Shown: positions 23,635 to 39,514 of the stretch, one piece after another
Numbering within the stretch: position 1 is the first letter of the stretch
How the letters are laid out: each line of letters opens with the position of its first letter
Notes under the pieces: generated by a model
Seen by the model: the letters and a program-made list of their open reading frames with translations, nothing else
The model's database searches: none
What the model was told of the DNA's origin: nothing
Assembly: GCA_963754945.1 (NCBI GenBank)
Contig: CAVWIG010000015.1
Coordinates: 1-64,000 of the forward strand
Source: Methanotrichaceae archaeon
GTDB taxonomy: Archaea; Halobacteriota; Methanosarcinia; Methanotrichales; Methanotrichaceae
DNA length: 64,000 bases
Direction: 5' to 3'
Translations under genes and position numbers: made by a program

Positions 23635-24519
23635 GTGGGCGCAGTGAGTAGGGTAAAAGTCAACTGGAATATAATGCCAACAAAAGTCTTTAAAAAAGAT
23701 ATAGTGTTGGACCGATTCGTGAGATACTTGAAGGGCTTAGGGCTAAGGAACGAGACAATAAAGCTCTATTTAGGTAGGGTCGGGGCATTCCTGGATTATG
23801 CCAAGAGCGATTTGCCGAACATCCAAACCGCTGAGAATTACAGGGCGAAACTGATTGAAGACAAATTATCTCGTGGCCACATAAACAATACTTGTTTTGG
23901 CATGAAGAAATTTTATAAAATGAATGATATCGATTGGAATTTTATTGTGTTGAAGACCAACGACGGAGTTCCCTACTATTTCGATGAGAAAGATGTACTT
24001 GCGATCTTTCGAGTGTGTTCAAATATTAAGCACCTGGCCATGCTTCAAACTCTGTTCTATGGATGTCTAAGAAGCAGCGAACTATGCAGGCTAGAAGACA
24101 ACGACCTCGATCTTAAAGCTAGGACCTTAAGGCTTAGGGAAACAAAGGGTGGCCGCGATGACATCGTGTATATCAACGAAGAATGCGCTGAAACCTTGCG
24201 ACTATATCTGAAGCTTAGGCCACAGGTAAAGATCGGAGATAAAACCTTGGTTTTCTATACTGACAATCAAAATCCCTGGACTAATGGCGACGTACACCGA
24301 ATGTTTATGGGGTACAAAGCGAAAGCCGGAATTACAAAGCCGGGTGCGGTACATGTTTTTAGTCGTCACACAACCGCTACAATGATGGTAGCAAAAGGCT
24401 GCGATTGCAGGATTGTTAAGGAGATTCTGCGGCATAAAGACATTCATACAACGCTGAGGTATGCACACCTTTCAGATCAGACTCGCCGCGAGAAGTATGA
24501 GAAATTCATGGTATTGTGA
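23635..24519 (+). CDS. tyrosine recombinase/integrase (intact)
   Basis: GCLRSSEL, ETKGG, HVFSRH and LRHKDIHTTLRYAH catalytic motifs. Confidence 0.95.
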   Translation: MGAVSRVKVNWNIMPTKVFKKDIVLDRFVRYLKGLGLRNETIKLYLGRVGAFLDYAKSDLPNIQTAENYRAKLIEDKLSRGHINNTCFGMKKFYKMNDIDWNFIVLKTNDGVPYYFDEKDVLAIFRVCSNIKHLAMLQTLFYGCLRSSELCRLEDNDLDLKARTLRLRETKGGRDDIVYINEECAETLRLYLKLRPQVKIGDKTLVFYTDNQNPWTNGDVHRMFMGYKAKAGITKPGAVHVFSRHTTATMMVAKGCDCRIVKEILRHKDIHTTLRYAHLSDQTRREKYEKFMVL

Positions 24520-24533
24520 ATGAGGTGGATTGA

Positions 24534-24677
24534 ATGGCCCTTACTAAGAGTGAACTGGTCGATAGTATTGAGCGTATAGATGAGATGACAACTGCCCTGG
24601 ATGAGATTAGGCATCGATTGGTTCAAGAACTTGAAGAAATCGAACAGCAGAAGTTGAGTCCACGCAAATGTCATTAA
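24534..24677 (+). CDS. small coiled-coil hypothetical protein (47 aa, absent from the ORF track)
   Basis: GAGGTG RBS, MALTKSELVDSIERIDEMTTALDEIRHRLVQELEEIEQQKLSPRKCH*. Confidence 0.55.
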   Translation: MALTKSELVDSIERIDEMTTALDEIRHRLVQELEEIEQQKLSPRKCH

Positions 24678-24895
24678 GTGATTCATTACCCGAGGACAGT
24701 TTGCGAAAACTATAAATAGAAAGATTGTGCAAGGAGCCGCTTGGCTCATGATAAGAGCCAGGAGCTAAGGTGGTCTGAACACCTCGGCTCAGGGAGGCTT
24801 CTATGCCTACAAAAGATGCAAGGAAAAACTATACGTATAAGTATAAAAGAGTTTCGGTGTCTTCGCCGAAACCCACTGCGGCGGAGGTTATCTAG

Positions 24896-25486
24896 ATGGT
24901 CCACTGCGAAGCGTTCTATAACCACATGCAGAAAGACCAAGACTTCTGCCGGAAAAACCCGGATACAGTCAAGCGTATCATGAATCATATTAAATTGCGG
25001 ACTATTCTAGACTCAGAAGCCGCGAAAAGCGAAATTCTGAAGGATAGTTCTCAGCCATTTGGCAGTATCCTTAGTGAAGGAGCCGGTCGCCCATTACATG
25101 ACCTGGATGAAACCGAGCTGAACAAGGCAATTGCTTTGATCGTTCAGAGGGCGGAGCAGAGAGAGATGAATTGTGACGAAAAGATTTCGGTGACGTCTAA
25201 AGAGGTAGCTGCGATCGTCCGTCAGGTTGCGCCATCGAAGGCCAAAGCAGCACCAAAGGCAAAGAAGTACAAGATCGAGGCGTTAGAGGACATCCTACAG
25301 TCTGCTTTCACCGGTGGCGAAATACCCAACGATGCGATATCATCAACCATCGTCAAGATCGACACCCTCATCAGAACTTTAGAGGCCCACAAGTCTGCTC
25401 TCACACAGAGGCAAGCAACCTTGAATGCTCGTGGTGCTAACGACACAATCCCAGAGCAGACACAACCGGAAGGGGCTAAAGCATGA
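24896..25486 (+). CDS. hypothetical protein (element 2)
   Basis: GGAGGT RBS, 196 aa, followed by a T-rich tract. Confidence 0.75.
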   Translation: MVHCEAFYNHMQKDQDFCRKNPDTVKRIMNHIKLRTILDSEAAKSEILKDSSQPFGSILSEGAGRPLHDLDETELNKAIALIVQRAEQREMNCDEKISVTSKEVAAIVRQVAPSKAKAAPKAKKYKIEALEDILQSAFTGGEIPNDAISSTIVKIDTLIRTLEAHKSALTQRQATLNARGANDTIPEQTQPEGAKA

Positions 25487-25687
25487 CCCTTCCTTTTTAG
25501 TCTTTTTACGGATTCACTAGTTTGATGAGATTCTTCAGAAAAATTTTAAGCTCGGGCTGCTATGGATTGTTCAGCATACCGAAACCGATTTTCAATATTT
25601 GGGCCGATAAGGGTTACACCCATGTTGAAATGCTGTATGATGATGTTCACAATACACTGATAGTCTGTCCGTTGTAGGTGACATAGA

Positions 25688-26380
25688 ATGAAAGATTATC
25701 GCTATTTTCGAGCCAAAAGCATCTTAAAGAAGACACTTTCCGGTAAATCAGACGATGTTCTTGTTTCCGACGAGCTAGAGGCAGCACGACAACGGCTCAT
25801 TAAATCCAATTCAAGAGGTTCCGCGCTTGAGAAGGCAAAGGCACAGGTGAAGGCAACGCTTGGAACCCCTAAGAGAGAATCGCCGTACAACACCAAATTC
25901 GATCCGGATTATGATGAATTTCTCATGATCCTGAACGAAAAGAATCGCAGTCCTGAGAAAGCCAGACAGCATTATGAGGCATTCAGAGATCAGGGATTCA
26001 CTTATTTGGACGATCATCCCGAAATCATCAATCCGCAGCCCGCTATGAAATTTAATCAGACGCACGACGAATTGAAAGCACAGCTACACAGAACACTTTC
26101 GACAAAATCTAATGTCGTACCTGGCAATCGAGAAGAGGCGGAACGGGAACTGGCTACCGCAAAGGCAAGATTGGCGGACACGCTTGCGAAGAAGCGGAAC
26201 ACGCCGGATCGTGTCGGTGGAGTAGATCAAGATACACGTTCGTCGTGCGTAGGCCCGTTCGGTCAGACGACTATGGAATCCGATGATGACCTTGAAGCAG
26301 CAAAATCCCGTCTACGTCAGACCCTGAATAGGAAGCGGGATGCCCTTTCGAAAGCTCAACGCGAGCAGGAGCAGTTATGA
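25688..26380 (+). CDS. hypothetical helical protein with repeated 'ELEAAR/K.RL..TL' segments
   Basis: AGGTGA RBS, 230 aa. Confidence 0.75.
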   Translation: MKDYRYFRAKSILKKTLSGKSDDVLVSDELEAARQRLIKSNSRGSALEKAKAQVKATLGTPKRESPYNTKFDPDYDEFLMILNEKNRSPEKARQHYEAFRDQGFTYLDDHPEIINPQPAMKFNQTHDELKAQLHRTLSTKSNVVPGNREEAERELATAKARLADTLAKKRNTPDRVGGVDQDTRSSCVGPFGQTTMESDDDLEAAKSRLRQTLNRKRDALSKAQREQEQL

Positions 26381-26898
26381 GTGGCATCGAGGCATTCCTG
26401 GGAGCTGCCAAGCCTGGTTCATCAGAAGGGAAGCTTGTTGAAGCCTACAACCAGGCGAAGATAGACTTAGAGAGGAAGCAGTCCGATCTGGTCAAGTGCC
26501 TTCGTATCGAGAAGGTAGGCGACCGTCTGATCCCAGCCTTTAGCCCTGAAGCTGCAAACTTGGCAGGACCACATTGGGATTCTGAAGCGCTGCTGCTGGA
26601 GATTCAAGCAGATATACAGAAATTTTTAACATGCACTAATGGAGAGCCCTTGAGCGGCCTTCTCGATAGGCTGTCGAGAGCTCGCCGGATAGTTAATGAT
26701 TCAGTGTTGGACGCCAGGAACGCAGTCGAGAGGTCTATCAGAAATCACGCTGCCCTGAACGTTCGTGAAGCAGAGGCGTTGCCCGAAGTTCAAAGCGCCT
26801 TCGACAAGAGAGACAGGACTCAGAGCGAGAAGGGTCCCATTATTTCGGATCTCGAAAGCCGGGTCCGAGAGGCGAAGAAGATCTTGGCAAAATATTAA
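26377..26898 (+). CDS. hypothetical coiled-coil protein
   Basis: ATGA overlap with the upstream gene. Confidence 0.75.
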   Translation: MSGIEAFLGAAKPGSSEGKLVEAYNQAKIDLERKQSDLVKCLRIEKVGDRLIPAFSPEAANLAGPHWDSEALLLEIQADIQKFLTCTNGEPLSGLLDRLSRARRIVNDSVLDARNAVERSIRNHAALNVREAEALPEVQSAFDKRDRTQSEKGPIISDLESRVREAKKILAKY

Positions 26899-28950: not shown

Positions 28951-29576
28951 TAGCTTTTGCACGGCTTTTCGGATACGATTCCCCTGAAGAGCTGATTGCT
29001 TCCGTCACGGATATAGGTCATCAGTTTTACGTTGATCCCCGGGACCGAGACAGAGCAATTAAGACTATTCTTGAGAAAGGTTTCCTGGAAGGATTCGAAC
29101 TTGAAGCGAGGCGGAAAGATGGCACCAAGTTTTGGGTTTCCATGAACACCAGGATAGCAAAAGATGAGAACGGCACGCACTTCGATGGCACCGTTGAGAA
29201 TATCACAGAGCGCAAGCAGATGGAAAAGGCGCTGCGAGAATCTAGAGATTATCTAGATAAGATTATCAATTCTATAGGCGATCCGATATTCGTTATCGAT
29301 AGACATCACCGACATATTCTGGTAAACGATGCTATGTGTGCACTGGCGAATCGCACTCGTGAAGAATTCATTGGGAAGACACCTTACGATTTCTTCCCCA
29401 GGGAGCAAGTTGAAGGTTTCTTGCAGAAGGACGAAGTCGTCTTTGAGACGGGAGAAGAGAACGTAAATGAGGAAACAATTACGGATTCGCAGGGAGTCAC
29501 TCGCACCGTAGTAACCAAGAAGACCTTGTATACAGATGCATCAGGGAACAAATCAATTGTTGGAATCATCCGGGAT

Positions 29577-30665
29577 TAGGACTTACGCAGTTGAATCTTT
29601 CGACAATGAATAATAAGGATATTTTATATATTCGCGAATTGACTCGCGAATAATTCTTCGCTTAGATTCGAACCAACTTATTCCTATTCTAAGCCTTTCT
29701 ACTTCTAATCTGAGAAACGCTCTCAGGGAGAACATTATGTGTGCTCTCTGGGACTGACTTTTTCTTGCTTGACAGCTTTCGACTCCACAGAATTGCTTTA
29801 TGCCTCTGTGATATTCCTCAATCTTCCAGGAATATCCACCAAATTTTTCGCGTTTAGCTTCGTCTATCTCCAGCACGTCAGTTGCCCAGTATCCTATGTC
29901 ACCGTCATTAGAGACTATCCGGAATACTTTTATAAAACCATAAGCTTTTAAATGCACTTCCCTGCCTTGCAACGGTATCTCTATCTCCTGGATTTGCATA
30001 TTTTTGGTGTTATTCGGATTCACTAGCCTATTTTTCTTCAATCGGGTCAGCCAGTGCCATCCAGACTTTCGTATGGTTTTGAGATTATCTACACTGGCAT
30101 ACCAGCTATCGAAGAGAACAATACGGGGCTGAAAACGCCGTTCTTTTGCTTTGGCAAGCATATCTCGAAAATGATCATTTTTTGTCTTGCCGTCGACATC
30201 TATATCGTAGATTCGGAAATCAACGGGAATTATAGCGTTTCCATCTGTCCACAGCAACGTACAAATATTGATTCCATTCACCAATCGATGCTGTTTTCCA
30301 CTCCATTGATGATAGACTAGGCTCATATTTTTAGCATATGGCTTGTCCAACGTCGTATCGTCAATAACCAAGAAACCATTTTGAGGCTGAACAATATCCT
30401 TTACCTCATTCCACAACGTATCCGTATCTGGAGGCTGTCTTTGTAGAAGACGGGTAAATGCATCATGCGATGGACTATTTTCTCCTACTGGCTGGCACCT
30501 TGCAGCCTCAGTACAGGTAAAAACATCTACTGATGCTATCAGAAAGTGAATATAATCAAGATCATCGCACTTGGAAGGATTCAAGTTCAGCCCTATCCCA
30601 TTTATTTGTTGGTATTAATATAGCATATGCAATATAAGAAGATTCTGCCAAGTGCGTAAGTCCTA
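29577..30665 (-). mobile_element. IS701-family element, copy 2
   Basis: Same IRs as copy 1; 6-bp TSD CGGGAT (29571-76, 30666-71). Confidence 0.93.
29583..30584 (-). CDS. IS701-family transposase
   Basis: Near-identical to 10552-11553. Confidence 0.92.
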   Translation of the reverse strand: MNPSKCDDLDYIHFLIASVDVFTCTEAARCQPVGENSPSHDAFTRLLQRQPPDTDTLWNEVKDIVQPQNGFLVIDDTTLDKPYAKNMSLVYHQWSGKQHRLVNGINICTLLWTDGNAIIPVDFRIYDIDVDGKTKNDHFRDMLAKAKERRFQPRIVLFDSWYASVDNLKTIRKSGWHWLTRLKKNRLVNPNNTKNMQIQEIEIPLQGREVHLKAYGFIKVFRIVSNDGDIGYWATDVLEIDEAKREKFGGYSWKIEEYHRGIKQFCGVESCQARKSQSQRAHIMFSLRAFLRLEVERLRIGISWFESKRRIIRESIREYIKYPYYSLSKDSTA

Positions 30666-31539
30666 CGGGATATAACCGATCGCAAGAAGGCAGAGGAGGA
30701 GTTACGTCAGAATCGGGACCATCTGGAGGAGCGTGTCAGAGAACGGACTGCTGAGATGGAGCGGTTCATATACACTGTCTCTCACGATCTGAGGTCTCCC
30801 TTGGTGACGGTGAGCGGTTTTGTAGGCTTATTGAAAGGGGACCTAGAGAGTGGTGACAGCCAGCGTGCATTTAGCGATCTCGTCACAATAAGCGAGGCCA
30901 TAACCAAAATGGATTGCCTATTGGTCGACACTCTGGAGCTGAGCAGGATCGGGCGGGTAGCTAACCCACCGGTGGACGTGTCCTTCGACAAGATCGTACA
31001 GGAGGCAATTAGGCAGACAGAGGAGAGGATAAAGTCTCTAGATGTGGCTGTCTATGTGGCAGGGGATATGCCAAAAGTCCGCGTGGACGTGCTCAGGATT
31101 GTGGAAGTGCTGGTCAACCTGATAGAGAACAGCGTGAAGTACATGGGAGATCAGGAGAGGCCAGAGATAGATATCGGCTCCAGAAAGTTCGGCGAGGAGA
31201 CGGTATTCTTTGTCAAGGATAACGGCATAGGTATCGACCCTAAGGAACACGAAAAGGTCTTTGGCCTCTTCTACAAGGTGGACAGAAAGAGCGAGGGGAC
31301 CGGCGTAGGTCTGGCGATAGTGAAGAGATAATTGGGGTCCATGGTGGGCGGATATGGATTGAATCTGAGCTGGGTAAGGGATGCACGGTATGTTTTACGC
31401 TGCCGTTGGCAGATTACCAGTAAACTAATGCGGGGTCCGTCCCCGCAGGTTAATTAATCCAAAAAACTTACCGGTATTTATTTTTACGTCGAAAGCAGCA
31501 GGGTCCACAGACGCGATGTTTGACTTGCATAGGCAGCAC

Positions 31540-31956
31540 TTATTTTCTTCGGCTCTCGACGATCTGCTTAGAGGCTGTCTCGGCTTCCAGCTCTCGGCGG
31601 CAGAACGGGCAGATCCTAACCCAGGATCGACCTGTCGAATCTGTCTGTAGATTGGCAGGAATGGTCTCTCTGATTCTCTTCAACAATGGCTCCGTCGCAA
31701 AGCCTTTCCCACACACTTCACAGGGTACCAGATCGAGAGAAACCTCTATGACGTCGGGCGTCTTGTCGCTGAAGGGAACCAGGGTCAAGGCCTTGGCAGG
31801 ACAAAACTCCACACAAATATCGCATTCTTCTTTGCACTTGGACCAGCGAATAGTCCTTTTTTTGCCCTCATCTTCCTCTCTCGTTATAAACTGATTAGGG
31901 CATATGTTGGAACACGCAAAGCAGCCCAAACACTTGTTGACATCAACCTGGATCAT
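31540..31956 (-). CDS. 4Fe-4S ferredoxin-like subunit
   Basis: CLGCFACSNICP, CKEECDICVEFCP, CEVC and CPFC motifs. Confidence 0.9.
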   Translation of the reverse strand: MIQVDVNKCLGCFACSNICPNQFITREEDEGKKRTIRWSKCKEECDICVEFCPAKALTLVPFSDKTPDVIEVSLDLVPCEVCGKGFATEPLLKRIRETIPANLQTDSTGRSWVRICPFCRRELEAETASKQIVESRRK

Positions 31957-32393
31957 CTTTTACCTCCCAGAATAGTGGCTCTGCCAGCTCTGGCCCTTGC
32001 TCTTTTGAGAGCAAGCTCATAGTCGTTTGACAGCGCCTGGGCCGGGCATGTGAGAACGCATGTCGGTGTCTCGTTGGGAGCGCACAGATCGCACTTGTGA
32101 GCCAGCTTGTCCGTCCACACAACCCCGAAGGGACATGCAAGCCGGCATAACCCACATCCAGTGCACTTGTCCAGGCTGAAGGAGGTGCGTTCTCCATCCT
32201 TGGTCAGGGCACCGCTATAGCAAGCCATGGTGCAGGCCGCCTCTTCGCAGTGGTGACAGAAGAGAGGGACTGATGCCCGGTCTTCACGGATGTGAACATT
32301 GACGTGGCCCTTGCCGCCATGAACGCGCTTGCAAGCCACCTCACAAGAACGGCAGCCTATGCACCGGTTGATATCTACGTAGACCCGCATCAT
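31953..32393 (-). CDS. HycB/FdhB-like four-[4Fe-4S] electron-transfer subunit
   Basis: CIGCRSCEVAC, CHHCEEAACTMAC, CTGCGLCRLACP and KCDLC...CVLTCP motifs. Confidence 0.92.
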   Translation of the reverse strand: MMRVYVDINRCIGCRSCEVACKRVHGGKGHVNVHIREDRASVPLFCHHCEEAACTMACYSGALTKDGERTSFSLDKCTGCGLCRLACPFGVVWTDKLAHKCDLCAPNETPTCVLTCPAQALSNDYELALKRARARAGRATILGGKR

Positions 32394-34430
32394 CTAATCC
32401 CTCCCGGATATCTTGCAGGCAGCCACCTTGAACTCAGGGATCTTGGCCTCCGCGTCCCTTGCGTCTGTGGTGAGGAGGTTTGTTCCTGGATAGTGGAAGG
32501 GCATGAAAACCACTCCCTGCTTTACGCTGTCCGTCACCCTGGCCAACGCACTCGTCTTCCCACGTTCTGTTGCTACCTCAACGCTATCGCCGTCTTTTAT
32601 CCCAAGTGGAGCTGCGTCCACTGGGTTTATCTCAACAAAGAGGTTCGGCGCTCGTTCCATCAGCGACGGGCTCCGTCGTGTCATGGAACCGGCATTGAAG
32701 TGTACGGCGATTCTGCCCGTAGTCAGGATGAGCGGATACTCGGTCCCTGTGTCCTCGGCTGCAGGCCTGTACTGGACTGGGGCTATCAACGCCCGACCGT
32801 CCTGCAGTTTGAAGCCCGCAGAGTGCAGAATGGGAGTGCCAGGATGGTCCGTGCTCGGGCACGGCCAGATGAGACCTCCAATTCCCAGGCGTTCCCGAGT
32901 TATTCCTTTGTAGGTCGGAACTAGTTTGTTGATCTCTGCCAGAACGGCAGCAGCATCTGGATAATCGAAATTCAGGCCCATGCTTTTTGCTACCATGCAA
33001 ACGATCTCCAGATCGCTCTTGGCCTCTCCCGGAGGTTCTATGGCACGGTTGGACCACTGGACTCTCCTTTCCGTGGAGGTATAGGTCCCCTCCTTCTCGG
33101 CCCACGAGGCTGCAGGGAGAACTACATTGGCGAGCCGGGCTGTAGCTGTCATGAATATATCCTGAACCACCAGGAAGTCCAAATTCTCAAGACAGTCCTT
33201 TATGTGGGAACTATACGGATCGGAATTAGCTGGGTCCTCGCCCACGATGTACATGGCCTTGAGCTGACCCTCGCAAGCCGCATCCATCATCTCTGTGGCA
33301 GCTAAGCCTCGGCCTACTGGAAGCAAGGTGGTGCCCCAGGCCTGGCCAAAGAACTTCGCAGTCTCGGGATCGTCGGACTTTCTGTAACCGGGATAGAACT
33401 CAGCCAGAGCGCCCATGTCACAGGCTCCCTGGACGTTGTTATGGCCACGCAGAGGAAGAACGCCCGTGCCCTCCTTCCCGATCTGGCCGGAGATCAGAGC
33501 AAGGTTGGCGACGGATTGGACGTTGTCCGTACCGGAGGTATGCTGGGTTATTCCCATGGAGTAGACGATCGCCGATGCCGGGGATTGGGCATACATCTTT
33601 GCAGCCTTGATTATATCCTTTACAGGGACTCCGGTTATATCTGCAGCTCTCTCTGGTGTGTAGTCCTTTACCGCTTCGGCTAGGTCCTCGAAACCCCTGG
33701 TACTCTTGGATATGAAGGCTTTATCGACGAGGTTCTCGTCTATGATCACCTTCATCATGGCGTTCAGAAGGGCCACATCGGTTCCTGGCTTGAGCTGCAG
33801 GAAAAGATCTGCCAACCAGGCGGTGTGAGTCAGCCTGGGATCGGCTACGATCACCTGGGCTCCCGAGTCCTTAGCCCTGTGAATCCATCGGGACAGGATT
33901 GCGTGGTTCTCAGCCAGGTTGGACCCTATGATGAATATGCATTTGGAGTTGGCCAGATCGGAGATGGGATTGGTCATTCCAGCCGCTCCCAGGGTTCTGT
34001 TCAAACCGACTACGGAGGGTGCGTGGCAGAGACGTGCGCAATTGTCCACATTTCTGGACCCGAGTGTCCGGGCCAGCTTCTGGATAAGGTAGTTTTCCTC
34101 GTTGGTGCACTTCGATGAGGAGAGGAAACCAACTGAATCGGGTCCACTATTTTTGATGGCCCTGCCCAGGCCTTTGGAGACGAGCTCCAGAGCCTCATCC
34201 CAAGAAATCCTAGTCCACTCGTATCCGTTTCTCTTCATTGGATAGAGCAGCCTATCCGCACTGTAGACGACCTCCAGAGCAGCATTGCCCTTGGGACAGA
34301 GGGACCCTTCGTTGGCTGGATGCTCTGGCATATACTCGATCCCCGTAGCTTGACCCTTCTCGACTGCGACATAAAACCCGCAGCCTGCAGCACAATACGG
34401 ACAGATCGTTGAAACAAGCGATTTCGACAT
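32394..34430 (-). CDS. fdhF: Mo/W formate dehydrogenase catalytic subunit (Cys-type, no export signal seen)
   Basis: CPYCAAGC...LCPKG, NCARLCHAPS, PLRGHNNVQG, EKEGTYTSTERR, LTTGR and KIPEFK motifs. Confidence 0.95.
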   Translation of the reverse strand: MSKSLVSTICPYCAAGCGFYVAVEKGQATGIEYMPEHPANEGSLCPKGNAALEVVYSADRLLYPMKRNGYEWTRISWDEALELVSKGLGRAIKNSGPDSVGFLSSSKCTNEENYLIQKLARTLGSRNVDNCARLCHAPSVVGLNRTLGAAGMTNPISDLANSKCIFIIGSNLAENHAILSRWIHRAKDSGAQVIVADPRLTHTAWLADLFLQLKPGTDVALLNAMMKVIIDENLVDKAFISKSTRGFEDLAEAVKDYTPERAADITGVPVKDIIKAAKMYAQSPASAIVYSMGITQHTSGTDNVQSVANLALISGQIGKEGTGVLPLRGHNNVQGACDMGALAEFYPGYRKSDDPETAKFFGQAWGTTLLPVGRGLAATEMMDAACEGQLKAMYIVGEDPANSDPYSSHIKDCLENLDFLVVQDIFMTATARLANVVLPAASWAEKEGTYTSTERRVQWSNRAIEPPGEAKSDLEIVCMVAKSMGLNFDYPDAAAVLAEINKLVPTYKGITRERLGIGGLIWPCPSTDHPGTPILHSAGFKLQDGRALIAPVQYRPAAEDTGTEYPLILTTGRIAVHFNAGSMTRRSPSLMERAPNLFVEINPVDAAPLGIKDGDSVEVATERGKTSALARVTDSVKQGVVFMPFHYPGTNLLTTDARDAEAKIPEFKVAACKISGRD

Positions 34431-34715
34431 CTATCTCCCTTGTGGCGATCTCGTTAAATATGAATTCGAGGCCGTAAGCAAGGCGATCCTTGCATTTGCC
34501 TCTGATGGCTCCTTGGTGACATATCCACTGCAGTGGCAGTGACGTGGTGCTTTTTGCAATGATTTCTGGTTCATGCGAGGTTCGGGACGCGGATTGCGTA
34601 GGATCTCGCAAGCATCCTATCCCTCAAACATGTTCAAAGCTATATCCCTTGCGGGCGCAAGATGCCTTTTTCATAATTTTCTAAATGCTTGCCGGGTGCA
34701 TTTCTCGCCACTCGA

Positions 34716-35219
34716 TCAGGCCCTCGATCTCTGAATCTCGGCTGTTTTGAGGCCGGCGTCCCTGCTGGCAACATCAGCGAGCTGCCCTTCATCCAGGAAG
34801 ATCAGAGTTCCTGTTGGACATGCGTTAACGCAGGCCGGGATCTCAAGGTCCTTGCAGCGATCGCACTTCAGGGCGATTCTCTCTTCCTTTTCCCTGCCGA
34901 CTACGCCGTAGGTGCAGATAGTAGCGCAGACCCAGCAGCCCACGCACTTGTCACGGTCTTTCGTGACGATGCCCGTGACGTCGTCCTTGGATGTGGCACC
35001 CGTCCTGCACACGGCCACACACGGAGCTTCATCGCAGTGGTGGCAGAGTAGGGGCATCCTCTGGCCCCCAATCATCTCAACGTAAAGCCTCTTCCTCGGC
35101 TCCGGCTTATCGGCGAGGGCACCGAAGAGATTCTTGCTGCCCGAGTGCTGCACGGCACAGGCGATCTCACAAGAACGGCATCCCATGCAGCGTTCAGGAC
35201 GGACGAATATCTCCAACAT
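34716..35219 (-). CDS. cooF: CooF-like Fe-S protein
   Basis: CMGCRSCEIAC, CHHCDEAPCVAVC, CVGCWVCATIC, KCDRC...CVNACP; 9 bp downstream of cooS. Confidence 0.9.
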   Translation of the reverse strand: MLEIFVRPERCMGCRSCEIACAVQHSGSKNLFGALADKPEPRKRLYVEMIGGQRMPLLCHHCDEAPCVAVCRTGATSKDDVTGIVTKDRDKCVGCWVCATICTYGVVGREKEERIALKCDRCKDLEIPACVNACPTGTLIFLDEGQLADVASRDAGLKTAEIQRSRA

Positions 35220-35228
35220 AAGCAGCCC

Positions 35229-37076
35229 TCAAAGCCCCAGCTTTTTGCGCTTGCTCTCGATGTGGTCAATAATCAGCTTCGCAGCCTTGAAGGGGTCCGG
35301 CTCCACGGCAAAGGCTCCACCGGTGACGCCCTTTATCCCCTCAGTCAGCAAGCTTGTCACACCTTGGCTCCCCAAGATCGGTGGAATGGTGCCCAGAACG
35401 GTATAGACTCCTGAAGCCACCACATAAGCACCGATTGACACCGCCTTCTCGCTCATCCACTCCGGAGCCGCAGCCGCGGCTGGAAGGTCGCTGATGTCAC
35501 AACCTAGAGCATCGGCCATGGCAGCGCAGGCTACCATTATCCTGCTGATGTCCACACAAGAGCCCATGTGCAGTACGGGCGGCACTCCGATGGCTTTACA
35601 GACGGTCTTCAGGCCATCGCCGGCCAGATCGGCGGCCTCGGGCAACAGCAGTCCGGCCTTTGCGCAAGCCTGGGCATTGCAGCCAGTAGTGACCACGAGA
35701 ACGTTGTTCTTTATCAGCTCCTTGACGAGGTTAACATGGCCGTAGTCCTGCTTCACTTTTGGATTGTTGCAACCGACGACCGCTGCCACGCCACGGATAG
35801 CTCCACCGGCGACGACGTCCAGCAACGGCTTTAGCGTTCCTCCTAGAGCACCAACGATGGCCTCCACGCTGAAGCCTACAACGGCCTCAGACTTGATGTC
35901 GGGAATATGGACCTTTGCGGGGTCGCGTAGACGGTAGTTTAAGACCGCCGTCTGGACGATCTGCTTGGCAGTCTCAAAGGCGCTCTCCTCCTTGAACTCC
36001 ATATGCGTTGCGCCTGGGAACTTTGCTTTTTGCGATGTAGAGATGAACTTGGTGTGGAAGCAGCCAGCCAGCGCGCCCAGGGCTGGCATGACGCACTGGA
36101 CGTCCACAACCATGGCGTCCACAGCTCCTGTGGCCACCGCAAGCTCCTGTTGGAGGAAGTTGCCGGCGATTGGTACGCCATGGCGCGCTAAGACCTCGTT
36201 CCCGGTACAGCACATGCCGGCCACGTTGATGCCTTTGGCTCCCTGATTCTTGGCTAGGTCTACAAGCTCGGGATCGCTGGCTGCTGCGACTATCATTTCG
36301 GACAGAAGGGGCTCATGACCGTGGACTACGATGTTGACCTTGTCGGCCTCCAGGACTCCCAAGTTGGCCTGGGAGCGGACGGGCGTTGGTGTGCCGAACA
36401 TGACGTCCTGCAGCTCAGTTGCGATCATGGAACCGCCCCAGCCGTCGGCCAAGCTCGTCCGCAGGCCGTGAAGCAGCAGGTTGACGTGATCATTGTCAAC
36501 ACCCATGGTTGTCCTGTGCATGCACTCCACTATCTCTCGATCGATTCCCCTTGGATCAATGCCCAGTTTCTTCCACAGCTCCTGGCGCTTTGCGGGAGCA
36601 CGACGAGTGAACTGGATCGGACCTTCCTGCTTTCCAAACTCTGCCATTACAGCGTTGGCTAGATCGATCTGGGTGGATACCCCGTACTCTTTCATCAGCC
36701 GGTCGAGCTTGGCTTGGTCCTTGACCTGATAGGATGGCGCTTTGCCCTCAGACATCAGCTTGAAAGTATGGGCCACATCCCTCGCGTGGTCCGAGTGGGC
36801 TGAAGCCCCGGCGGCAATAGCTCGCAGAAGGTTACGGGCAACGATGATGTCTGCTGTAGCACCGCATACGCCTTTTGTAGCCGCCTCCCCAAAGGGATCA
36901 ATGCGGCAGGGACCCATGTTGCAGTTGCGGCAGCACAGGCCAAGTTCTCCGAAACCGCATTGTGGTTGCTGCTTTTCTAACCGATCCCATGCGGTTTCCA
37001 GGCCAGCCTTGTGAACGATGGCCAGCATTTCCTGGCTGGCAGGGTCTATTGATCTCTCTTTGATGTTCGTGACCAT
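35229..37076 (-). CDS. cooS: anaerobic Ni-CO dehydrogenase catalytic subunit
   Basis: QCGFG..GLCCRNCNMGPC, HSDH, HGHEP, MCCTGNE, DVQC, GCNN, TGC, GSCVD and WMSEKA motifs. Confidence 0.96.
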   Translation of the reverse strand: MVTNIKERSIDPASQEMLAIVHKAGLETAWDRLEKQQPQCGFGELGLCCRNCNMGPCRIDPFGEAATKGVCGATADIIVARNLLRAIAAGASAHSDHARDVAHTFKLMSEGKAPSYQVKDQAKLDRLMKEYGVSTQIDLANAVMAEFGKQEGPIQFTRRAPAKRQELWKKLGIDPRGIDREIVECMHRTTMGVDNDHVNLLLHGLRTSLADGWGGSMIATELQDVMFGTPTPVRSQANLGVLEADKVNIVVHGHEPLLSEMIVAAASDPELVDLAKNQGAKGINVAGMCCTGNEVLARHGVPIAGNFLQQELAVATGAVDAMVVDVQCVMPALGALAGCFHTKFISTSQKAKFPGATHMEFKEESAFETAKQIVQTAVLNYRLRDPAKVHIPDIKSEAVVGFSVEAIVGALGGTLKPLLDVVAGGAIRGVAAVVGCNNPKVKQDYGHVNLVKELIKNNVLVVTTGCNAQACAKAGLLLPEAADLAGDGLKTVCKAIGVPPVLHMGSCVDISRIMVACAAMADALGCDISDLPAAAAAPEWMSEKAVSIGAYVVASGVYTVLGTIPPILGSQGVTSLLTEGIKGVTGGAFAVEPDPFKAAKLIIDHIESKRKKLGL

Positions 37077-37504
37077 GAATAATCCTCTTTTTATAATCAT
37101 TGTTGTTTATAAACAGTGCCTCTTCCGACCTGAAACTACTTAAGCTTATCTTTATTATTTTAAAATATTTATCTTGATTTGATATTGCACAATAACTTAA
37201 AAATTTTGTTACTCATCATGATCATACAATTATCTAAATTAAATGCGATCTGGCCTTTTTTGACGATTGTAAATAAGAGCTTTTTCTAGCTAAATTTTCT
37301 CGCTAATATTTCTACCAGATATTTAAACTTGATTCATAAACTTCCAAATTTTTGATTAATTTTCTGCGTAATTCCGCGACCACATCATTCAGACAACTCT
37401 TGGCAATTATCTCTTGATGAGTCGAAACTGAAGTGACGATCCAGTTAGCAAAGCTTCGCTCAATTGATAGAGACTCTCAATGACCTGATAGACACAAGGA
37501 TTGA

Positions 37505-39514
37505 CTATTTTTTTTTCATCCAGGGCGGTGTCGGTATTTTCAGAGATCGAAATCTATTTCCGTTATTGGTCTGCTTTTTTTTGGATTCTTGGGACTGGGC
37601 TGAGACTTTTGTGTAGATGTCATTTTTGCTATTGTCTCCTGCGTGATTCTGAGATATTTCCGTCCCATTGTTAAACGACGACATGGCTGAGAGAGATGAT
37701 CTTCCTTGGCTTTGTCCAGTTTTTGTGAGATTGTTACTGAGGTCGTTGTTAGGTTCTTGGATTTTGTTGGAGATGTTATTTTTGGCTAGTACAACTCTTG
37801 TGCTCGATTCAGAGGAGTTCGAGTGGCCTTTAAGGTTTCCAAAACCTTCATTGATCTTGTTTGATCCGACATTTGATGATTTATCTGGCGTATTATTGAC
37901 TGAAACATTGTCGTCGCGCACCTTTGATACAATGGGGGTTAGTTTGCCCCTTTTATCCTGCACAGAAAGCATCGATTCGTTCTGGGCTTTTTTATCCTTG
38001 ATTGCGCTGTCGTTTGTCGTTAGGTTGAAGGTACCATTCTCTATGTAAGTTTTATCGTTTATAAGATCCGATTCTTTGGGGGCTGATACTGCCGAACCAT
38101 TTTTGTCAGAAGCGATTCTTCCTTCTGTCTCTGTAGGTTTCGAAGTCGTAGAACTCGTCTGAGGCCGCGCAGAATCTGTAGAACCAGAAGAGGGGTTATC
38201 AAATGAAAGGTTGGGTCTCCCTGAGATAAAAAGATAAGAGCTGCTTCTACTCTCATTACCTCCAAGTTTCGCGTCAGGAAGAACATTTGAGATGTTACTG
38301 GTCGGATAAGAGTCCCTCTGCTGTTCATTCCCTTTTGATTCATTTGTCAGCGATTCAACTATCTGTGAATCGTTCATCCGAGTCTCATTCATCCGAGATT
38401 CAATGATCTGGGTTTGATTTATCCGGGATTCAGTCAATTGAGATTCGTTTGTCTGAGATTCGTCTATTCGGGTATCGTTTACTCGGGATTCATTAGTCCG
38501 GGTTTCATTCATCCGAGTCTCGTTTATCGGGGATTCGCTGACCTGGGTTTGATTTATCCGGGATTCAGTCAATTGAGATTCGTTTGTCTGAGATTCGTCT
38601 ATTCGGGTATCGTTTACTCGGGATTCATTAGTCCCGGTTTCATTCATCTGAGTCTCGTTTATCGGGGATTCGCTGACCTGGGTTTGATTTATCCGGGATT
38701 CAGTCAATTGAGATTCGTTTGTCTGAGATTCGTCTATTTGGGTATCGTTTACCCGGGATTCATTAGTCCGGGTTTCATTCATCCGAATCTCGTTTGTCTG
38801 AGATTCGTCCACTTGGGTATCGTTTACCCGAGATTCGTTAATCTGGGTTTCGTTCATCTGAAAATCGTTATTCTGAGGTTGATTTCCACCAATTGCGTTA
38901 AATGGAACTGCATCAGCTCTGTCAGCCTGATATGCAACACTTTTATCTTTCGAAGGGTTATATTCCCAGCACTTAACAGGCGTATCTGAGCCGCTATCGA
39001 GATCTGAGCTTCCTATTATGGGAGCGCTGGCTTTCTTTGCTGATTGAACAAGCCTTTGGGCTCGCGATGAGTTTGATGAGTTCAAAGATATCTGCTGATG
39101 GTTGAGATTTTTCATGCTGGCATTAGTCTCTTTTGCCTTAGGGACCCTATTCTTAGCCATTAGAGCCCGGGCTTTATAGCTATTGACTGCTGCTTTTTTG
39201 GCTGCCGCGCTGTTTAGAGAATTTATTCCCAGAATAGATTTGAATTGATCCATCAGCCTTATGCCATTTTCCTGCCAGGTCTTTATCGCCTTTATGCTTC
39301 CTTGAGGGACCTTGAGATCGAATCCGGTGAATGGTCCCTTGTGGGATGTGTTTGATTTGAAAGAGAGGATATCGGATAACAGGAAAGCACCCATGGCGAT
39401 CAAACAGATCAGCGCCAAGGCCAGGAAAATGTTAAACATCTTCGGATGTTTCTGAATTAAGCCTTTGCTAACTGAGCTATATATGGTGCTTCTTGTTTTC
39501 TCCGGATCCCTCAT
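37505..39514 (-). CDS. N-terminally membrane-anchored Asn/Ser/Thr-rich repeat protein (probable glycoprotein)
   Basis: One hydrophobic helix (IFLALALICLIAMGAFLL), dozens of N-x-S/T sequons. Confidence 0.8.
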   Translation of the reverse strand: MRDPEKTRSTIYSSVSKGLIQKHPKMFNIFLALALICLIAMGAFLLSDILSFKSNTSHKGPFTGFDLKVPQGSIKAIKTWQENGIRLMDQFKSILGINSLNSAAAKKAAVNSYKARALMAKNRVPKAKETNASMKNLNHQQISLNSSNSSRAQRLVQSAKKASAPIIGSSDLDSGSDTPVKCWEYNPSKDKSVAYQADRADAVPFNAIGGNQPQNNDFQMNETQINESRVNDTQVDESQTNEIRMNETRTNESRVNDTQIDESQTNESQLTESRINQTQVSESPINETQMNETGTNESRVNDTRIDESQTNESQLTESRINQTQVSESPINETRMNETRTNESRVNDTRIDESQTNESQLTESRINQTQIIESRMNETRMNDSQIVESLTNESKGNEQQRDSYPTSNISNVLPDAKLGGNESRSSSYLFISGRPNLSFDNPSSGSTDSARPQTSSTTSKPTETEGRIASDKNGSAVSAPKESDLINDKTYIENGTFNLTTNDSAIKDKKAQNESMLSVQDKRGKLTPIVSKVRDDNVSVNNTPDKSSNVGSNKINEGFGNLKGHSNSSESSTRVVLAKNNISNKIQEPNNDLSNNLTKTGQSQGRSSLSAMSSFNNGTEISQNHAGDNSKNDIYTKVSAQSQESKKKQTNNGNRFRSLKIPTPPWMKKK
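38340..38860 (-). repeat. intragenic 15-bp pentapeptide repeats (NE[T/S]xx) arranged in 135-bp higher-order units
   Basis: GGTTTGATTTATCCGGGATTCAGTC recurs at 38411, 38546 and 38681. Confidence 0.92.

Follow-up and report, generated by a model that had tools for sequence, protein, structure and literature searches.

The 64,000-nucleotide stretch of DNA analysed here (the window; positions 1 to 64,000 of contig CAVWIG010000015.1, assembly GCA_963754945.1, from an archaeon of the Methanotrichaceae) carries a nickel carbon monoxide dehydrogenase (Ni-CODH) gene, cooS, and a formate dehydrogenase (FDH) gene, fdhA, in one run with three genes for iron-sulfur (FeS) proteins. The locus raises the question whether electrons from CO oxidation are passed directly to CO2 reduction, i.e., whether the five products form a natural CO:formate oxidoreductase, as an earlier note on this sequence had proposed. 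On balance, we lean towards the view that the products of the cluster act as a soluble electron wire from CO to formate, CooS > CooF > FeS2/FeS1 > FdhA, the formate of which would feed F420-, NAD(P)- or glutamate-synthase-linked FDHs. This view is based on gene identities, intact ligands, conserved gene order and thermodynamic direction from our own analysis, and on co-expression data published for one relative (the available parts of PMC10470525).

The five genes and their products

The cluster consists of five intact open reading frames (ORFs), all on the - strand and spanning 37076-31540, and our ORF map agrees in this with the earlier note. The features are as follows.

35229..37076, - strand: cooS, monofunctional Ni-CODH catalytic subunit (615 aa; TIGR01702; closest PDB chain 6t7j)
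34716..35219, - strand: cooF, 16-Cys four-cluster FeS protein (167 aa; Fer4_11 match and family alignment)
34431..34715, - strand: cooF-fdhA gap of 285 bp, with an inverted repeat and then a motif like a B recognition element and TATA box (BRE/TATA-like) at ~34630-34663
32394..34430, - strand: fdhA, cytoplasmic Cys-type Mo/W FDH alpha subunit (678 aa; TIGR01591)
31953..32393, - strand: FeS1, HycB/HydN-type four-cluster protein (146 aa; profile matches 7z0s_B, 7qv7_A/B)
31540..31956, - strand: FeS2, HycF-type without the HycF N-terminus (138 aa; NF009053, E 1e-12)

From cooS to FeS2 the successive intergenic gaps are 9, 285, 0 and -4 bp. The start of cooS is placed at 37076 by the alignment of relatives, and an in-frame ATG is also present at 37100. 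Across all five genes, the nucleotide differences from two other family genomes (G001 and G002) are mostly synonymous. The genome of the window (G000) carries mcrA, and the nearest named cooS loci are those of Methanothrix and unclassified Methanosarcinales.

The two catalytic subunits are clear in their identity. CooS reaches 748.5 bits on TIGR01702 (cut-off 478), and FdhA 849.5 bits on TIGR01591 (cut-off 666), with PDB matches to 9t1s_L, 7bkb_D and 7qv7_S, the last being FdhF of hydrogen-dependent CO2 reductase (HDCR). In the window and in 16 of 16 aligned five-gene loci, 17 CooS positions (ligands of the B-, C- and D-clusters and the catalytic His/Lys) are invariant, and so are the [4Fe-4S] Cys residues, Lys47, Cys135-His136 and Arg328 of FdhA, while FdhA position 330 varies, being His in the genus of the window and G012 and Gln elsewhere. 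The roles of these CODH (Cys/His/Lys/Glu) and FDH residues are those which we take them to have. In addition, no twin-arginine motif has been found in FdhA, and the maximum 19-residue hydropathy among all five proteins is 1.75. That is, both the Ni-CODH with its cluster-ligand motifs and the Cys-type FDH without export signal, as read earlier from the sequence, are borne out.

The two small proteins had been described as polyferredoxins abutting or overlapping fdhA. Their adjacency stands, but the generic label should be replaced, since one is HycB-type and the other HycF-type. With its 16 Cys, FeS1 finds its best PDB match in E. coli HycB (7z0s_B), followed by HycB4/HycB3 of HDCR (7qv7_A/B). 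FeS2 has 12 Cys, with a ferredoxin domain and a C-terminal CxxC...CxxC site; its match to HycF covers the full length of FeS2 (7z0s_F residues 38-161), and its predicted structure (pLDDT 87) aligns to 7z0t_F with Z 14.1 and rmsd 2.5 A over 123 residues, the next unrelated row having Z 7.8. FeS2 starts at about HycF residue 32, i.e., without the first ~31 residues, and its C-terminal 79 residues by themselves give only weak zinc-finger CxxC matches among PDB sequences. Because FeS1 matches HycB, and FeS2 matches HycF by sequence and fold, FdhA-FeS1-FeS2 is the FdhF-HycB-HycF input arm of formate hydrogenlyase (FHL) minus the hydrogenase and the membrane part. In the FeS2 copies of genera g6 and g8, most Cys of one ferredoxin-type cluster are gone while the other ligands and the CxxC...CxxC site are kept, so the electron wire may be one cluster shorter there.

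Profile scans of the flanking ORFs have revealed no hydrogenase, flavin, F420, membrane or acetyl-CoA synthase (ACS) gene adjoining the cluster, in line with the earlier reading. The flanks are a repeat protein (37505-39514) on one side, and a histidine-kinase remnant with an IS701 transposase on the other.

Conserved order, co-expression and energetics

We have mapped the cooS locus in 37 Methanotrichaceae genomes (G000-G036) of 16 genera. The five-gene order is complete with an intact fdhA in 16 genomes from 7 genera, and truncated by a contig end in two (G006, G008). Three more genomes (G015, G023 and, over two contigs, G011) have the order but with an internal deletion in fdhA; in another three this search has not detected this cooS type. 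In all 33 family loci having this cooS type, cooF comes after it. With start codons picked by script, cooF and fdhA lie -1 to 10 bp apart in seven genomes and 43-56 bp apart in five (together 12 of the 16 complete loci), and 270-376 bp apart in the lineage of the window. Outside the family, 8 of 59 genomes of genus g21 have an FdhA match; three of the 59 have this FDH subfamily (58-59% identity), and all three carry fdhA within the five-gene order.

The arrangement is also seen in a published survey. Supplementary Table 2 of PMC6344411 contains 53 occurrences of COG3383 in CODH contexts. Six of the rows read CooS-FeS-COG3383-FeS-FeS/unlabelled and carry no label for ACS, flavin or hydrogenase; their CODHs are of groups E-1 and E-2. 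They belong to Mx. thermoacetophila PT and M. harundinacea 6Ac, to Methanosarcina sp. WWM596 and MTP4, and to Desulfacinum infernum and D. hydrothermale, the last four being known by their COG labels only. Among 75 named cooS loci, two, both of Methanothrix, have fdhA directly behind cooF. The conserved synteny to which the earlier note had looked as a check is thus present in 7 of 16 family genera, in another family and, by the published table, in Desulfacinum. When 151 genomes of the phylum were searched with an FeS2 profile (no more than 27 candidates being scored in each), only the five that belong to the family had given a match, but the family-restricted system which this suggested is overturned by the g21 loci and the published table. 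Two further candidates have been rejected: L134 is a hydrogenase/Wood-Ljungdahl cluster with [FeFe] hydrogenases and fhs, and L184 is an opposite-strand fragment.

For co-expression, the available data of PMC10470525 cover Mx. thermoacetophila, in which the five genes are Mthe_1341 (cooS), 1340 (cooF), 1339 (fdhA), and 1338 and 1337 (FeS proteins). A sheet of 82 rows gives the genes that are higher on acetate than under direct interspecies electron transfer (DIET), and in it Mthe_1341, 1340, 1339, 1338 and 1337 are raised 2.18, 1.87, 2.08, 2.11 and 2.12-fold, respectively; Mthe_1336 is also in this sheet, and Mthe_1342 appears only in the magnetite sheets of opposite direction. From the same data, the expression ratio of fdhA_1339 to cooS stays at 0.77-0.97 over four conditions (n = 4), while the fdhA genes Mthe_0913 and 0915 do not follow cooS. 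One contrast lists only Mthe_1339 and 1340. The supplementary text of that study, in the parts available, treats cooSF and the Mthe_0913-0915 FDHs, but not a link to Mthe_1339, which is annotated there as an F420-dependent FDH. As to the window, RNA contigs from four metatranscriptome runs (word shares 0.13-0.19, 85% likeness) give some cover on all five genes, with DNA possible in the libraries. Two depth-2 contigs from two studies extend from the end of cooF to 34601, though such contigs cannot show starts, levels or single transcripts. Relatives with shorter cooF-fdhA gaps show up as joints in RNA contigs, again with DNA possible in the libraries.

The energetics point in one direction. The reaction CO + H2O -> formate has a dG0' of -16.5 kJ/mol (PMC9166738), and CO levels of 0.16-0.25 Pa are reported for cultures and reactors fed with acetate (PMC4652020; both values from the passages available). 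We have computed from these an equilibrium formate of 1.2-1.9 mM at 25 C, and a dG of -12 kJ/mol at 10 uM formate, and CO to formate is therefore the favoured direction. In such habitats, formate is micromolar.

The genomic setting should also be considered. A NiFe hydrogenase large subunit is found in only 2 of the 37 genomes (G000 and G019), and therefore the usual CooF partner is missing in nearly all carriers; the family is usually described as hydrogenase-free. G000 has other FDH modules, an FdhA with an FrhB-type subunit (contig C27), an FdhA with sulfhydrogenase beta/gamma-type subunits (contig C5) and an FdhA with FdhD (contig C20), and it encodes a formate/nitrite channel; with these, it has the gene set to reuse or export formate. 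The acetyl-CoA decarbonylase/synthase (ACDS) genes, with ACS, corrinoid FeS subunits and their own CODH, lie on contig C45, apart from the cluster. Other observations in this genome include an FdhA gene followed by sulfhydrogenase beta- and gamma-type genes, a candidate formate:NAD(P) oxidoreductase (G000:C5:5304-9127, L313); two near-identical NiFe hydrogenase operons with maturation genes (G000:C42:27-6288 and G000:C26:1-7664; L315, L013-L016); and two operons which by sequence look fpo-like, of complex I type (G000:C1:7291-14732 and C30:200-7474), also near-identical, which could be a strain duplication in the assembly.

In the mechanism that we propose, CooS would oxidise CO, most likely CO leaking from acetyl-CoA cleavage; the electrons would go by CooF and FeS2/FeS1 to FdhA, which would reduce CO2 to formate. 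Formate would thereby replace H2 as the sink for CO and as a diffusible reductant in a family mostly lacking hydrogenase, and it would either leave the cell or be oxidised again by the cell's F420-type and NAD(P)-type FDHs. What we infer in this scheme is that the CODH and FDH halves are in contact, in which order FeS1 and FeS2 sit along the wire, and what becomes of the formate.

A detachable module and the competing explanations

The FDH subfamily is found in three forms. The early branches (type B and genus g21) are coo-linked, a second form is an orphan FdhA that has no small subunits, and the third, type A, is the one to which the gene of the window belongs. The type A unit fdhA-FeS1-FeS2 is also found at a glutamate synthase (glt) locus, behind glnA-gltB1-gltB2-gltB3 (Pfam Gln-synt, GATase_2, Glu_synthase, GXGXG), and six genomes have both a coo-linked type B copy and a glt-linked type A copy. 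The lineage of the window (G000, G001, G002, G012, G015, G023, G011) forms a single clade in the GltB2 tree (support 87). In this lineage the coo locus holds type A, and no fdh tail follows the glt genes in 6 of 7 genomes, G012 ending at a contig edge. A single clade of coo-linked FdhAs is rejected (approximately unbiased test, p 5e-5), the earliest branches of the subfamily are all coo-linked, and only type A has the glt link. Judged from these trees, all of them quick searches, the coo-fdh link is therefore old and has been either retained or re-made across a duplication. Either the duplicate would have been used in the lineage of the window to make the coo link anew, or it would have moved to the glt locus more than once; the quick trees do not decide. 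The detachability of the module, with type A usually behind glnA-gltB1-gltB2-gltB3, had been missed in the earlier note.

The glnA-gltB1-gltB2-gltB3-fdhA-FeS1-FeS2 operon occurs in many family genomes (L090-L102, L235-L255) and is a candidate formate-dependent glutamate synthase; no description of it has been found in the full-text literature, of which few subscription papers were covered. In the window's genome, the glt genes without fdh tail are at G000:C22:23355-28457, with glnA in two frames (G000:C22:27091-28457), a frameshift or an assembly error. Junctions without N runs, at which fdhA is lost or internally deleted and FeS1-FeS2 are retained, are seen at both the glt locus (L105, L106, L107) and the coo locus (L053, L058, L109, L114, L124).

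On the other hand, a number of observations weigh against a dedicated CO:formate wire. In 11 family genomes type A, with fdhA intact, follows gltB3. Of 79 metagenome loci, 24 have it there and 2 have it behind cooF, and FdhA at the glt locus would most simply oxidise formate. In 13 of the 37 family genomes cooS-cooF is present without a following fdh (two of them with broken cooS), and so it is in the four intact g21 cooS loci first mapped (L080-L083). FdhA has been deleted or internally deleted, with FeS1-FeS2 kept behind cooF, in G015, G023, probably G011, L124 and L114; the orphan FdhA paralogue (L103, L104, L232) could supply the missing subunit where FeS1-FeS2 remain alone. A NiFe hydrogenase operon is present in G000 itself. 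The cluster has no cooC-like gene, and the only one found, with one query, sits in the ACDS cluster. In the available pages of PMC10470525, one contrast has only Mthe_1339, 1338 and 1337 past the 1.5-fold cut, and another omits Mthe_1337. Methanothrix does not grow on CO, and 2 kPa CO inhibited growth on acetate in strain CALS-1 (PMC4652020, as far as the text was available). In the literature passages covered, there is no report of formate excretion from CO. Zinder and Anguish reportedly measured CO, H2 and formate in Methanothrix in 1992, which may bear directly on the claim.

The gap before fdhA belongs among these points. The 285-bp gap between cooF and fdhA, a caveat in the earlier note, is real, and at ~34630-34663 it contains a short inverted repeat and the BRE/TATA-like motif, conserved in G001, G002, G012, G023, L234, L257 and L264. 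Among 322 loci, the motif occurs only before type A fdhA genes of the coo locus. It persists in L257, where fdhA-FeS1-FeS2 are at the same locus with no cooS/cooF within 3.7 kb upstream; small gene pairs that resemble HicAB and VapBC-type toxin-antitoxin modules sit where cooS-cooF would be (L257:1265-3410). The inverted repeat is not enriched genome-wide (4 found versus 5.3 expected). A sigma-70 promoter scan gave nothing above shuffles, the sigma-70 model being unsuited to an archaeon. The motif is a probable internal promoter of fdhA, which weakens co-transcription in the window's own organism, and transcript-level coupling in this lineage is probably looser than in the tight-operon relatives. 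Separate transcription and regulation of the two halves had been named beforehand as a result that would count against the proposal. In this respect, the five genes rise together in Mx. thermoacetophila (PMC10470525, parts available), and the lineage of the window has a promoter-like element in the gap.

Of the other explanations, the one that deserves most attention, although we regard it as rather unlikely, is that the two halves are co-regulated separate modules, each exchanging electrons with free ferredoxin or an FpoF-less Fpo and scavenging CO and formate, so that any flux from CO to formate would be indirect. The coo and fdh halves are indeed found apart, fdhA has the promoter-like element of its own, FeS2 is related to the NuoI-type subunits of complex I, and a ferredoxin-fed headless Fpo has been described in Methanothrix (PMC10470525, in the passages available). 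Against this, the order and the -1 to 10 bp spacing are maintained over three families and two CODH subgroups. A ferredoxin-linked FDH should not need two dedicated wire proteins, and formate oxidation to the ferredoxin level would be uphill at micromolar formate, by the potentials generally assumed. Less probable still is a shared anabolic wire, in which FeS1-FeS2 would lead to glutamate synthase or another biosynthetic acceptor, with CooS-CooF and FdhA as alternative donors and CO and formate both oxidised. It would fit with the type A module standing behind gltB3 in most relatives, with the window's lineage having the module behind cooF while 6 of 7 of its glt loci have no fdh tail, and with FeS1-FeS2 outlasting the loss of fdhA behind gltB3 (G005, G017, G027) as well as behind cooF. 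Yet the earliest branches have the coo link, the glt link is restricted to type A, one copy at each locus in six genomes argues for two jobs, and the orphan FdhA paralogue without small subunits could account for the retained FeS1-FeS2.

The wire might also run in reverse, with formate oxidised and CO made from CO2 for the ACDS complex. Both enzymes are reversible, as is established, and a formate-splitting FDH activity has been reported for some Methanothrix (PMC6687939, part available). This direction, however, requires formate above ~1.2 mM when CO is at 0.16 Pa. The genes are up on acetate (PMC10470525, parts available), a condition in which CO comes from acetyl-CoA cleavage, and ACDS already has its own CODH; we consider the reverse direction very improbable. 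Finally, that the genes have become neighbours by chance after rearrangement in a genome rich in insertion sequences (IS) is scarcely credible and already largely refuted: IS701 and a kinase remnant do adjoin the cluster, and the KaiC-like gene which is its usual downstream neighbour lies on a different contig in G000, but the same order is found in 15 other family genomes, three genomes of another family and six published contexts (available rows of PMC6344411).

As to the surroundings, the flanking repeat protein (37505-39514, - strand) has 669 aa and begins with a hydrophobic N-terminal stretch; its pentapeptide-like repeats are encoded by a tandem array of 15/45/135 bp (38373-38877). On the other side, at 29142-31331, PAS-domain and histidine-kinase ORFs are split by the IS701 transposase (29583-30584), and the kinase ORF ends early at 31331. 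Farther away, an ORF in 23635-26898 (+ strand) is, by motifs that we take to be diagnostic, presumably a tyrosine recombinase, and the region is possibly an integrated element; small ORFs follow it, one of which (25688-26380) carries a repeated short helical motif.

Known systems and meaning

The nearest known counterpart is the synthetic CO:formate oxidoreductase (CFOR) of Thermococcus onnurineus NA1 (CodhAB + Fdh3ABC; PMC9166738, passages available), which has the same parts, i.e., a CODH, a four-cluster CooF-type protein, an FDH, and four-cluster and two-cluster subunits, and the same overall reaction, here predicted. In CFOR the FeS proteins needed to be joined through a linker, whereas the parts in the window are naturally encoded together and unfused. 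As would be expected of such an enzyme, a CODH, an FDH and only FeS wire subunits are encoded together and expressed together, the co-expression being that of a relative, not of the window's organism. With HDCR (PDB 7qv7) the cluster shares an FdhF-type catalytic subunit, HycB-type wires and a soluble, flavin-free make-up. It differs from HDCR in its donor, a Ni-CODH instead of a [FeFe] hydrogenase (no HydA2 is in the cluster), in the additional HycF-type subunit and in the archaeal host. It resembles the E. coli FHL arm (PDB 7z0s/7z0t), FeS1 matching HycB best and FeS2 having the full HycF fold, but HycE, HycG and the membrane subunits are missing, FeS2 is shortened at its N-terminus, and in several relatives one of the two ferredoxin-type Cys motifs of FeS2 is lost; no group 4 NiFe hydrogenase or membrane subunits have been found in the cluster or adjoining the mapped five-gene loci. 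FdhA is close in sequence to that of the F420-dependent FdhAB of methanogens (9t1s_L, 7bkb_D), yet the cluster has no FrhB/FdhB-type subunit, the FdhA + FrhB-type pair being elsewhere (contig C27). Unlike in an ACDS cluster, neither ACS nor corrinoid FeS subunits stand beside its CODH. Clusters of acetogens and sulfate reducers (PMC6344411, available rows; L134) likewise have cooS and an FDH-family gene in one neighbourhood, but 47 of the 53 tabulated occurrences carry ACS, NuoE/F-type flavin, GltD, Hdr or hydrogenase labels. Overall, the cluster should work like HDCR and CFOR, yet by its composition it falls outside HDCR, FHL and F420-FdhAB.

The gene order itself is already in print, being tabulated for Methanothrix, Methanosarcina and Desulfacinum (PMC6344411) without interpretation; the main text of that paper has zero occurrences of 'formate' or 'FDH'. 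We have found no description of the cluster as a CO:formate oxidoreductase in the full-text literature, in which few subscription papers were covered. According to a paper of 2022, direct coupling of CO oxidation to the production of formate had not been demonstrated for any natural enzyme (PMC9166738, passages available). Since cultured strains carry the cluster (available rows of PMC6344411), the claim is directly testable.

If the reading of a CO:formate wire is true, the natural complex would be a mediator-free catalyst for converting syngas CO to formate and would come in mesophilic as well as thermophilic versions. It would be relevant, too, to the role of the Methanothrix FDHs, stated to be unclear (PMC6687939), and to the supply of F420H2 without hydrogenase, as the way in which Methanothrix-type methanogens gain F420H2 is debated (PMC10470525, PMC12072023; all three in the passages available). 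A broader proposal, which we put forward tentatively and hold at somewhat less than even chance, is that this would be the first natural CO:formate oxidoreductase, a five-subunit complex free of flavin and hydrogenase, around which formate would cycle within the cells of acetoclastic methanogens poor in hydrogenase. Leaked CO or low-potential electrons of acetyl-CoA cleavage would be turned into formate, which paralogous FDH modules would use for making F420H2 and NAD(P)H and for driving glutamate synthase, the duplicate FdhA-HycB-HycF arm being that of a formate-dependent glutamate synthase.

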